Part shown: one piece after another, positions 7,810 through 31,198 of the stretch | Layout of the letters: every line of letters starts with the position of its first letter | Position numbering within the stretch: the first letter of the stretch is position 1 | Assembly: GCA_017991395.1 (NCBI GenBank) | Contig: JAGOQQ010000003.1 | Coordinates: forward strand, 2,400 to 66,399 | Reading direction: 5' to 3' | DNA: 64,000 nucleotides | Source: Minisyncoccota bacterium | GTDB taxonomy: Bacteria > Patescibacteriota > Minisyncoccia > Phycocordibacterales > UBA9973 | Program-made: the position numbers and the translations under genes | Notes under the pieces: model-generated | Seen by the model: only the letters and a program-made list of their open reading frames with translations | The model's database searches: none | What the model was told of the DNA's origin: nothing

Positions 7810-7826
7810 GCTCGGGTAGCTCAGTT
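7810..7826 (+). repeat. truncated 5' fragment (17 nt) of tRNA-Phe, copy 1
   Basis: gctcgggtagctcagtt identical to the tRNA-Phe 5' end, preceded by the same tatg context; the sequence then diverges. Confidence 0.7.
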
Positions 7827-7896: not shown

Positions 7897-7936
7897 GCTC
7901 GGGTAGCTCAGTTGGTAGAGCGCTCCCCTGAAGAGG
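7897..7936 (+). repeat. truncated 5' half (40 nt, through anticodon loop) of tRNA-Phe, copy 2
   Basis: 40/40 identical to positions 1-40 of the intact tRNA-Phe at 8087, with the same aataatatg upstream context. It then diverges and no 3' half follows. Confidence 0.75.
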
Positions 7937-8086: not shown

Positions 8087-8159
8087 GCTCGGGTAGCTCA
8101 GTTGGTAGAGCGCTCCCCTGAAGAGGGATAGGTCACCAGTTCGACCCTGGTCCCGAGCA
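8087..8159 (+). tRNA. tRNA-Phe (anticodon GAA), CCA not encoded
   Basis: Hand-folded cloverleaf: acceptor GCTCGGG/CCCGAGC, D-arm GCTC-AGTTGGTA-GAGC, anticodon loop CTGAAGA, T-arm ACCAG-TTCGACC-CTGGT; 73 nt. Confidence 0.85.
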
Positions 8160-8172
8160 CAGCACAGAATAG

Positions 8173-9132: not shown

Positions 9133-9351
9133 AATCACAGACCATTATCTATTTGTCATCGCTCTCGACTGGGACCAAAGCACAAAATCCCGCGTAGGCG
9201 GGATGTTTGTGTCTTGTGGTCACAAATATTTTTCTCGTCGTCACTCGAAAAATTTCGCGACCCCGCCTCAGTTATTCGCATTGGTATGCGAATATACTTC
9301 CGACCGGCACAAGTATCAAAAAATGCCAAGCAGTTGGCGTTTTTCTCTCTT

Positions 9352-9366
9352 GTGCCCTTACTCCGA
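9352..9366 (+). repeat. 15-bp direct repeat of the tRNA-Arg 3' end (gtgcccttactccga)
   Basis: Identical to 9525-9539, the 3' end of the minus-strand tRNA-Arg; 17 bp if the preceding tt is included. Confidence 0.75.
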
Positions 9367-9475
9367 CGCTTCGCTATCTCACTCTTTGGAAACCCACGGT
9401 TTTCCAACGTTTGCTTCGCTCACTGCCTTCCTCCACGGGAAAACTAGAGTTTTCCCGACCCCTTTCCTGTTCGAT

Positions 9476-9488
9476 TCGGAGTAAGGGC
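9476..9488 (+). repeat. inverted copy (tcggagtaagggc) of the tRNA-Arg 3' end; with 9354-9366 it forms 13-bp terminal inverted repeats around a 109-bp ORF-free segment
   Basis: Perfect reverse complement of 9354-9366. Confidence 0.7.
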
Positions 9489-9519: not shown

Positions 9520-9525
9520 ATTTTG

Positions 9526-9597
9526 TGCCCTTACTCCGAATCGAACGGAGATCTATTCCTTAGGACGGAACTGTTCTATCCATTGAACTATAAGGGC
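9526..9597 (-). tRNA. tRNA-Arg (anticodon CCU)
   Basis: Reverse complement folds as GCCCTTA-TA-GTTC-AATGGATA-GAAC-A-GTTCC-GTCCTAA-GGAAT-AGAT-CTCCG-TTCGATT-CGGAG-TAAGGGC-A; 72 nt. Confidence 0.8.
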
Positions 9598-30377: not shown

Positions 30378-30541
30378 ATAGTTTTTTATAGTACCACACT
30401 TTTGCTTTTTTTGACCTTTTTTGGTATTATAGTTGACGTATTCCCCTAGTGCTTAGCGAGCCATAAAGCTTTATAACCACGAAAGAATACATACAAAAAA
30501 AGAATATTCCCCTGTAGCTCAGCGGTAGAGCAATCGACTGT

Positions 30542-31111
30542 GGACATTTTCCGCCTGTTGTTATACTTAAGGTATGACCGACAAAAGGAAATATGCCGAT
30601 AGACGCGAGGCATTAATCAAAGCTGTTGTGAAAAGACGCAAGAAAGTAAAAGATCTTGCAATAGAATACAAAGGAGGCTCTTGCCAAATTTGTCACTACT
30701 CAAAATGTGTGGACGCTCTTGAGTTCCATCATATCAATCCTTTGGAAAAAGAATTCGGTATCGGAGCAAAAGGCTATACACGTTCTTGGGAAAGTGTTCG
30801 CAACGAATTAGATAAATGTGTTCTCTTGTGTGCAAATTGCCACAGAGAAGTTGAGTCTGGCATAACGCAGCTTTCTATCGAAAGATAGATTGAAAATGAG
30901 GTGAATTCGGGGAAACCCAAATGACGAAAAACAAGTCATGGGCAATCCCGAGCCAAGCCTTGATGAAAATCAAGGAAGGTGTAGAGACTATCCCGTAAGG
31001 GAGTAGGCTTCCGACTTTTGTTGGAACCCGAAGCGCCTCGGTCCTAAATTTTGTGGAAACAAAACACGGATATGATATAGTCCATCCCTTTAAGTAATTT
31101 TAGGATAAATG
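30542..31111 (+). mobile_element. group I intron in tRNA-Asn anticodon loop (between nt 35 and 36) carrying an HNH homing-endonuclease ORF
   Basis: Conserved group I elements: P-like gaattcggggaaa, Q-like aatcccgagc, R-like agagactat, S-like gatatagtcc. HNH ORF 30574..30888. Confidence 0.75.
30574..30888 (+). CDS. HNH endonuclease (intron-encoded)
   Basis: CQICHYSKCVDALEFHHINP...CANCHREVE: HNH nuclease motif with zinc-finger cysteines, 104 aa. Confidence 0.8.
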   Translation: MTDKRKYADRREALIKAVVKRRKKVKDLAIEYKGGSCQICHYSKCVDALEFHHINPLEKEFGIGAKGYTRSWESVRNELDKCVLLCANCHREVESGITQLSIER

Positions 31112-31198
31112 TAATCGATTGGTCGTAGGTTCGATCCCTACCGGGGGAGCATTGAATAAAAAGTTTGCCGTCCTTAAAGGGGCGGTTTTACTTTTTTA

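Follow-up and report, generated by a model that had tools for sequence, protein, structure and literature searches.

The DNA analysed here is a window of 64,000 nucleotides (nt) on contig JAGOQQ010000003.1 (GCA_017991395.1) from a Minisyncoccota bacterium. It contains a tRNA-Asn(GUU) gene that is split by a 570-nt group I intron, and the intron in turn carries an open reading frame (ORF) for an HNH endonuclease. All coordinates are window positions, and features lie on the plus strand unless stated otherwise. Exon 1 (30508-30541) comprises the standard tRNA nucleotides 1-35 with position 17 absent and ends in ...CUGU, so that U35 is the -1 nucleotide. The intron follows at 30542-31111, and exon 2 (31112-31149) runs from U36 to the discriminator G73. 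ARAGORN in intron mode reports a single tRNA-Asn(gtt) with a 570-nt intron at gene position 35, between anticodon nucleotides 35 and 36. The joined exons form a regular 72-nt cloverleaf with U1:A72, G73 and the loop CUGUUAA, and the same tRNA body was found in more than 70 related loci. U30541 precedes the intron and G31111 closes it, the latter being the omega-G (31111-31111), which is the invariant column G247 in alignment A2. The original prediction, made from the letters of this DNA, had proposed this tRNA with the same exon boundaries, the insertion after nucleotide 35 and agreement with the U|...G| splice-site rule, and the intron-aware scan bore out each of these points.

With default settings ARAGORN reported only a tRNA-Phe and a tRNA-Arg over the window and missed the split tRNA-Asn. 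A second intact tRNA-Asn, which had been raised as an observation that would point to the split gene being a pseudogene, was not found within the 64-kilobase (kb) window. Metagenomes were scanned for uninterrupted tRNA-Asn genes with matching D-arm and T-arm, which yielded at least 120 DNA stretches. Among the stretches listed, an uninterrupted gene in L092 (L001, L092 and so on are the labels of related loci compared with the window) is identical to the predicted ligated exons in 72 of 72 nt and scores 70.8 bits on the tRNA model RF00005. In the same scan, the spliced products of other intron-bearing variants equal intronless genes that are present in 10, 3 and 2 copies. Since identical intronless alleles exist, the intron is optional at the tRNA-Asn site in nature. 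L092 shares no synteny with the window, and the two are thus not a direct before/after pair. The window tRNA-Asn does not encode its CCA end (GAG|CATT), and neither does L007; L001, L003 and L008, which have the same tRNA body, do encode it (GAG|CCAG). A terminator-like hairpin with a T-run, identified by sequence scan, lies directly 3′ of the tRNA (31167-31196).

The Rfam model Intron_gpI (RF00028) matched positions 30828-31104 with 58.3 bits (gathering score 50, E 3e-12), and the full model (1-253) was covered. For a covariation test, 55 loci were aligned from the guide sequence to exon 2 and compared with a hand-drawn structure consisting of P2, P3, P4, P5, P6/6a, P7, the post-P7 hairpin, P8 and P9; slid partners and 500 shuffles served as controls. 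Altogether, 94.9% of the cells are paired, compared with 35-47% in the slid controls. Compensatory changes were found in 38 of 51 pairs, among them pairs of P2, P3, P4, P5, P6/6a, P8 and P9, and none of the 500 shuffles reached the observed values. The ribozyme fold is under selection, and the group I core that had been recognised by eye is confirmed by both the model score and the covarying fold.

The 5′ strand of P1, CUGU|G (30538-30542, splice site after U30541), pairs with the internal guide sequence C-GCAG (30866-30870), U30541 being part of a U-G wobble; the GCAG part is invariant in the alignment. In 71 of 75 loci the first intron nucleotide is paired with the base that precedes GCAG (G:C 54, A:U 15, C:G 1, G:U 1). 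In ORF-bearing introns GCAG is located approximately 324 nt downstream, within the conserved T-Q-L codons of the ORF. ORF-less introns with a length of 190-234 nt are present at the same tRNA site in L058, L068 and L082; in these the distance from the splice site to GCAG is 6-10 nt, and CUGU and GCAG close a plain P1 hairpin. A guide sequence near the intron 5′ end, with the ORF located in P2, was considered as well and rejected, since that region offers no pairing candidate and since, in the ORF-less introns, GCAG stands beyond the position of the ORF.

P2 (30874-30879/30884-30889) has a GAAA loop; all six pairs show compensatory changes, 99.7% of the cells are paired, and the ORF stop codon UAG (30886-30888) lies within its 3′ strand. 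P3 (30897-30903/31034-31040) encloses P4 (30908-30912/30946-30950), P5 (30916-30918/30940-30942), P5a (30921-30925/30935-30939, drawn from the window only), P6 (30953-30954/30978-30979) and P6a (30958-30964/30969-30975). P3, P4, P5 and P6a are paired in 94-100% of the cells and covary. P7 (30984, 30986-30990/31078-31083) contains the guanosine-binding site and is engaged in a pseudoknot with P3; its sequence agrees with the Rfam consensus AGACUA ... AUAGUC and is invariant in the 55 loci. Two hairpins are placed between P7 and P3′ (approximately 43 nt, 30991-31029), at the positions that P7.1 and P7.2 occupy in introns of subgroup IA. The first has a GUAA loop (30991-30994/30999-31002; four of four pairs compensatory), and the second (31006-31015/31020-31029) was drawn by eye. 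They are followed by P8 (31041-31044/31068-31071; four of four pairs compensatory) with its extension P8a (31049-31054/31059-31064) and by the P9 hairpin with a GUAA loop (31087-31104), in which six of seven pairs covary across loci and 79.6% of the cells are paired.

Introns of subgroup IC3 lack P5abc and carry GNRA loops on P2 and P9. The window intron shows the same architecture: P5abc is absent, L2 is GAAA and L9 is GUAA, and the GNRA type is kept across the alignment. A compact core, in which P3′ follows P7 almost directly, also belongs to IC3; it is seen in ten sister loci and not in the window. The classic IC3 introns (Azoarcus tRNA-Ile(CAU), Agrobacterium tRNA-Arg(CCU), cyanobacterial and plastid tRNA-Leu(UAA) and cyanobacterial tRNA-fMet) likewise interrupt the anticodon loop and have a small core without P5abc and with GNRA loops on P2 and P9. 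The core sequences of the window appear to resemble those of these introns, and its J3/4-P4, P6 and J6/7-P7 sequences appear very similar to those of Azoarcus. In contrast, the classic introns have other host tRNAs and interrupt them at 34/35 or 36/37 instead of 35/36, and the window intron has the two additional hairpins between P7 and P3′ and an ORF in the P1 loop.

The ten sister loci (L035, L036, L046, L052, L060, L064, L067, L068, L070 and L079) represent a second core type at the same tRNA-Asn site, which is compact and from which both post-P7 hairpins are missing (GGGAUAACGGUGAA...). With the exception of the ORF-less L068, they share the position of the ORF in the P1 loop, which suggests that the ORF or the core may have been exchanged between intron lineages. 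The compact core resembles the row Tyr.4Ug in the seed alignment of Williams 2020 (10.1101/2020.01.27.920355).

According to the same study, the curated intron database held only four bacterial tRNA classes (Leu.3Ug, Arg.5Ug, fMet.2Ug and Ile2.5Ug), all of them IC3, and the study raised the tRNA intron classes to 21, with a seed row Pam37.Asn.4Ug. The original prediction had regarded tRNA-Asn with an insertion at 35/36 as outside the classic sites. This holds for the four classic sites; however, the site has already been catalogued as Asn.4Ug, and it is very common in Patescibacteria. In its seed row, Asn.4Ug shares with the window the tRNA-Asn host, the insertion after the fourth anticodon-loop nucleotide, U at -1 and G at omega, the guide sequence ..GCAGCC, a four-base P2 loop (GUGA in the seed, GAAA in the window) and the core strings UCGGGUGAAUUCA.GGAAA, GCAGAGACUA and AUGAGAUAGUCC. 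The seed row has a short P1 loop of approximately 50 nt, whereas the window has one of 323 nt that contains the HNH gene, and it has a single hairpin between P7 and P3′ instead of two. Judged by guide sequence, P2, P3/P4 and P7 in this row, the window intron is clearly homologous to Pam37.Asn.4Ug and thus belongs to a catalogued class. Group I introns in tRNAs of the candidate phyla radiation (CPR) are also mentioned in PMC8172020.

The HNH endonuclease ORF (30574-30888) encodes 104 amino acids and was identified by ORF search, Pfam, PHROG and alignment. The original prediction had named a 104-amino-acid HNH ORF in the intron, which was confirmed. The ORF is not placed in a peripheral loop of the core; it takes up the loop of P1 and extends into the guide sequence and P2. 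The codons T-Q-L constitute the guide sequence, and the last codons together with the stop codon lie in P2. The RNA at the 3′ end of the ORF thus also serves as guide sequence and P2, so that its translation competes with the folding of the ribozyme. ORFs that reach into core intron sequence require tightly controlled expression (Hausner et al., PMC3984707).

The protein passes the Pfam HNH model (PF01844) narrowly, with 21.9 bits (cut-off 21.4 bits), and belongs to the PHROG HNH family 2255 (E 4e-29). In an alignment of 32 diverse homologues, C40, H52, C86 and C89 are invariant and C37, H53, N88 and H90 are nearly invariant. The structure model consists of one long basic helix and a Cys4 HNH core with strand-strand-helix elements. 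The best matches in a profile search of solved structures are weak and include the endonuclease domain of a group II intron maturase and McrA; the matches of the model in Foldseek, the HNH domains of CBASS Cap5 and Cas9, are weak as well.

An extended -10-like box, TGT TATACT (30559-30567), is located inside the intron 6 nt before the ATG at 30574 and is proposed as the promoter of the HNH gene. In 58 of 69 loci the ATG is preceded at a distance of 6-10 nt, most often 6 nt, by a box that matches TATAAT in at least five of six positions; it is exactly TATAAT in 45 and has the TGn extension in 41 of the 69. No ribosome-binding sequence fits between the -10 box and the ATG. The -10 box pattern suggests an internal promoter and a leaderless HNH mRNA. 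A second extended -10 box, TGGTATTAT (30422-30430), stands just upstream of a partial tRNA copy described below and is a candidate promoter for the pre-tRNA. A scan for two-hexamer promoters found nothing relevant, as both candidates belong to the extended -10 type; 30422-30430 is not among its hits because that box has no -35. A small hairpin, GUGGA CAUUU UCCGC (30540-30554), sits directly on the 5′ splice site with a U-rich stretch behind it, and an analogous GGAAAUUUCC hairpin is present in related loci. This hairpin might insulate the internal promoter or extend P1.

More than 2740 homologues of the HNH protein are detectable; identity is 69% or higher for the best 120, most of which have a length of 104 amino acids, and an identical protein is encoded on seven independent contigs. 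A scan of species genomes (one genome per species) yielded at least 519 loci that encode an HNH relative, the best 80 of which were examined for their context. Nearly all of these 80 are from metagenome-assembled genomes (MAGs) of Patescibacteria (Paceibacteria, Parcubacteria, Nomurabacteria and others), while a few bear the labels Acidobacteriota, Elusimicrobia, Eubacteriales or Gammaproteobacteria. The ORF is located in a tRNA-Asn(GUU) intron at the same position in more than 70 of the 80. Group I introns that lie within Patescibacteria tRNA genes are reportedly also the subject of a 2025 preprint by Nakagawa et al. Broken ORFs are found in related loci such as L047 and L063. The intron with its HNH gene occupies the same site in L071, L073, L076 and L086, which are from MAGs labelled Elusimicrobia, Eubacteriales and Acidobacteriota; these four have differing tRNA-Asn bodies, a single post-P7 hairpin and no TATAAT box before the ORF. 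Intron-bearing MAGs of other phyla reflect either a truly wider host range or mis-binned contigs.

In 27 loci ARAGORN called a tRNA-Thr(tgt) with an intron at position 33 or 34 (L020, L032, L035, L040-L044 and approximately 20 more). A second host tRNA was considered on this basis and rejected, since all of these tRNAs have an Asn body with U1:A72 and G73. The false call, with the intron placed two bases early, results from GU at the start and UG at the end of the intron. This is a trap for annotation, which would record a Thr-anticodon tRNA with Asn identity.

Homologues of the HNH protein also occur as free-standing genes in phage tRNA clusters (L207-L290, 44-72% identical), in most cases as direct neighbours of tRNA-Asn(GTT). 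The closest annotated ones are HNH genes of the Bacillus phages Bastille, Goe5, Janet and BCU4 with 59-72% identity. In the three that were examined, Bastille (L207, 2161-2830), Goe5 (L209, 861-1540) and BCU4 (L210, 826-1416), the gene directly follows an intact tRNA-Asn(GTT). In Bastille and Goe5 the HNH stop codon is followed immediately by a 3′ fragment of tRNA-Asn that starts at the anticodon stem (GGCTGTTAACC...), and a Lak megaphage (Lak-C1, L208, 1279-1900) has a homologue immediately downstream of tRNA-Asn. Nearly all of 80 viral-contig loci with homologues lie in tRNA clusters, and the nearest tRNA is tRNA-Asn(gtt) in 35 of the 80. In one further viral-contig locus ARAGORN reports a tRNA-Asn(gtt) with a 48-nt intron. 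The intron form is also present in the viral contig L211, for which Thr is likewise called by mistake. A DNA search with the ribozyme core against phage genomes gave short matches to generic group I cores only. These neighbourhoods tie the HNH lineage to tRNA-Asn genes with or without an intron. The ORF lies inside an intron, and alleles of the same target with and without the intron exist, as is the case for homing endonucleases; a homing enzyme that recognises the anticodon region would fit these data.

The HNH (beta-beta-alpha-metal) nucleases I-HmuI, I-BasI, I-TwoI and I-TevIII are encoded in phage group I introns; these introns interrupt protein genes, and the enzymes are larger, with added DNA-binding modules. 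The window protein is likewise an HNH enzyme inside a group I intron, but smaller with its 104 amino acids. I-Ssp6803I belongs to the PD-(D/E)XK family and not to the HNH enzymes. It is encoded by the tRNA-fMet intron of Synechocystis (Bonocora and Shub 2001, as listed in PMC3984707), the host tRNA and insertion site of which differ from those of the window.

Free-standing HNH genes are also found immediately upstream of the tRNA-Asn genes with ORF-less introns (L058, 1501-2160; L068, 1495-2110; L082, 1489-2110). In L058 the guide sequence once contained in the free-standing ORF is degraded, and the ORF is preceded by what is left of the end of an older exon 1. Zeng, Bonocora and Shub are said to have described in 2009 a "collaborative homing" of a free-standing enzyme and an ORF-less intron, and the arrangement in L058, L068 and L082 is similar.

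Upstream of the split gene, a partial copy of the leader and the tRNA-Asn 5′ end is present at 30439-30458 (TATTCCCCTAGTGCTTAGCG), which is probably a recombination scar. By local alignment it matches the leader and tRNA 5′ end in 18 of 21 positions with gaps and in 14 of 18 without gaps. It scores better than 998 of 1000 shuffles of the 400 nt upstream of the gene (p ~0.002). In a survey of 71 related loci comparable copies (p<0.01) were found in 11, while approximately 0.7 are expected, and each copy matches the acceptor-stem variant of its own locus. These copies include the ATAT leader; the best of them match in 16/16 and 25/28 positions, and their distances upstream are 37-174 nt. L001, which encodes an identical HNH protein and is syntenic upstream, has kept the TATTCCCCTAGTGCTTAGCG fragment base for base. 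It also has an insertion of approximately 199 nt, in which an old exon 1, split by an element of approximately 95 nt, is followed by ~25 nt from the start of an old intron and then by a leader and an exon 1 that are both new. This insertion reads as a second, younger layer, in which an old exon 1 and intron start would be left upstream of a fresh complete copy. In L058 a new complete gene is preceded by the remnant 'CCTGT|AGAG...' and an entire HNH ORF. Such layers look like what would remain after a resident gene breaks and a foreign allele, with only the short exons in common, serves as the template for its repair.

The original prediction had noticed the copied tRNA 5′ end and compared it with 5′-fragment duplications at tRNA-Phe. 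The copy is genuine by its p-value, its conservation and its recurrence, and the parallel is valid, but such copies are not peculiar to tRNA-Asn. The window tRNA-Phe (8087-8160) has two upstream 5′ copies (7810-7826 and 7897-7936), each after the same TAT(G) leader. The first, a 17-nt copy, is followed by a small inserted hairpin; the second is perfect over 40 nt, ends just past the anticodon loop and scores 19.6 bits as a truncated pseudo-tRNA. An intron remnant between the tRNA-Phe copy and the tRNA-Phe was considered and rejected, as a permissive Rfam scan found only the truncated pseudo-tRNA. The tRNA-Arg(cct) on the minus strand (9525-9597) has 3′-end copies downstream, an inverted one (GCCCTTACTCCGAATCGAAC) at approximately 35 nt and a direct one (TCGGAGTAAGGGCAC) at approximately 160 nt (9469-9488 and 9352-9366). 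These copies could close a hairpin element of approximately 140 nt with a stem that mimics the acceptor/T arm. Since tRNA-Phe and tRNA-Arg have copies and no intron, the copying process is not specific to the tRNA-Asn intron.

A conserved structured element of approximately 95 nt lies beside tRNA-gene fragments in several genomes. Its core reads GGCGGAG...GGGGTCGCGA(A)ATTTTTC..GAAAAATAyTTGTGAC, and its first hairpin varies among copies and stays paired. It is present in the window (~9219-9300, minus strand), in L001 (~1500-1610), in L002 and in L016 and L029 (both ~1310-1400). In L016 and L029 parts of the tRNA-Asn 5′ end stand on both sides of it, as a direct copy (nt 1-10) on one side and an inverted copy (nt 3-18) on the other. 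Rfam scans of the element and of the tRNA-Arg flank gave only spurious hairpin matches and no family. SegB of phage T4, a GIY-YIG enzyme, offers a comparison: the homologues of the window HNH protein are, like SegB, free-standing in phage tRNA clusters, and partial tRNA copies flank them. In PMC13096335 the phage endonuclease SegB is reported to promote the amplification of segments at tRNA loci, which may be a parallel to the tRNA-fragment copies described here.

Taken together, the locus is very probably a functional tRNA-Asn(GUU) gene of a Paceibacteria-like genome, split at 35/36 by a self-splicing and mobile group I intron. The pre-tRNA would be transcribed from the upstream promoter to the terminator at 31167-31196. 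P1 would form over a long range, CUGU|G with C-GCAG, and close a loop of 323 nt, while P2-P9 would fold to a compact core to which two hairpins are added between P7 and P3′. Guanosine would attack after U30541, and the omega-G would then direct exon ligation to give the mature tRNA-Asn. The gene in the P1 loop would be expressed from the internal extended -10 promoter as a leaderless mRNA and yield a 104-amino-acid HNH endonuclease of the zinc type. This enzyme would nick or cut intronless tRNA-Asn genes near CTGT|TAA, and repair would copy the intron in (homing). The upstream copy would have arisen when a break in the resident gene was repaired from a foreign intron-bearing allele together with its short leader, with the 5′ stump of the resident gene remaining.

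Several points weigh against this interpretation. Splicing, endonuclease activity and the internal transcription start are predictions from sequence. The tRNA-Asn count covers 64 kb, and a second intact copy may be located elsewhere. The Pfam score of the HNH protein is barely over the cut-off, its structure model has only moderate confidence (predicted local distance difference test, pLDDT, 70), and neither the profile search of solved structures nor Foldseek on the model returned a solved homing endonuclease close to it. The internal box of the window matches TATAAT in five of six positions and is without a -35. In the ribozyme, P1 must form across 323 nt, P9 carries two internal U-U mismatches, P10 is weak with at most three pairs, and P7 is beyond covariation testing because it is invariant. 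The copies at the intronless tRNA-Phe and tRNA-Arg show that the scar need not come from the endonuclease of the intron.

Instead of being mobile, the intron might splice and be inherited only vertically, with the HNH protein as an inactive or domesticated remnant or as a maturase helper. The borderline Pfam score, the broken ORFs of L047 and L063 and the ORF-less versions would agree with this and would fit the decay phase of a homing cycle. However, the window ORF is intact, its metal-binding and catalytic columns are invariant or nearly so across the 32 homologues, the same protein is found on seven independent contigs, identical intronless alleles exist, and the element is spread across many classes of Patescibacteria and a few other phyla. 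We therefore consider an immobile intron improbable. It is much less probable still that the split gene is a dead pseudogene and that tRNA-Asn is supplied from elsewhere in the genome. The window is only 64 kb long and debris of tRNA genes is common in it, but the exons are perfect and identical to the uninterrupted L092 gene, the core keeps every invariant position and all covarying helices, the arrangement is kept in dozens of species, and a terminator follows the gene.

The upstream copy might also be something other than a passive scar, namely a functional leader or a small mobile element that uses tRNA-end sequences. Direct copies of nt 1-10 and inverted copies of nt 3-18 are found in L016, L029 and L013; in L016 and L029 they flank the ~95-nt structured element, which interrupts the old exon 1 in L001 and L002, lies beside the tRNA-Arg 3′-end copy in the window and has a first hairpin that varies between copies yet stays paired. 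The window fragment, in contrast, is degenerate (indels and mismatches) and has neither an inverted partner nor a copy of the element. Fragment lengths and distances also vary by locus, and the element matches no Rfam family. A leader function or an element of its own is thus unlikely for the upstream copy, though less so than the two possibilities above. That the fragment resembles the tRNA 5′ end by chance would be in line with its short and imperfect match (14/18 ungapped), but is effectively refuted by the p-value of ~0.002, by the copies of their own in 11 of 71 loci and by the exact conservation in L001. A passive scar beside a functional gene with a mobile intron remains the preferred reading.

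The observations on the whole family can be combined in a broader and more tentative reading, which we regard as possible but rather doubtful. A single HNH lineage would have specialised on the anticodon region of tRNA-Asn and would exist in three states. In phage tRNA clusters it would stand alone, and in the second state it would stand alone as well, upstream of a tRNA-Asn with an ORF-less intron. In the third it would sit inside the P1 loop of that intron, where it has a leaderless promoter of its own and its 3′ end supplies the guide sequence and P2. Repeated invasion by heterologous donors, with exon homology of approximately 35 nt per side, would have left stacked 5′ exon stumps upstream. 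The copies of tRNA ends and the ~95-nt element at several tRNA genes would be results of the same recombination biology. If this is true, the loci would represent a natural series in which a free-standing endonuclease becomes the passenger of an intron, and past homing events could be read from the exon stumps as from a fossil record. Four aspects may not have been described before, namely the ORF-in-P1 architecture, the promoter inside the intron, the connection with free-standing HNH genes of phages and the exon stumps.

The feature is real, functional-looking and well conserved, and the window instance itself contributes little new. Standard tRNA finders miss the split gene or call it tRNA-Thr(UGU), so that Patescibacteria would seem to be without tRNA-Asn or to have a mischarging tRNA. 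In these organisms with minimal genomes, an essential and probably single-copy tRNA would rely on splicing by a ribozyme. The locus family, with hundreds of species, is a data set on how an endonuclease gene and a ribozyme share the same sequence and on transfer between phages and ultra-small bacteria.

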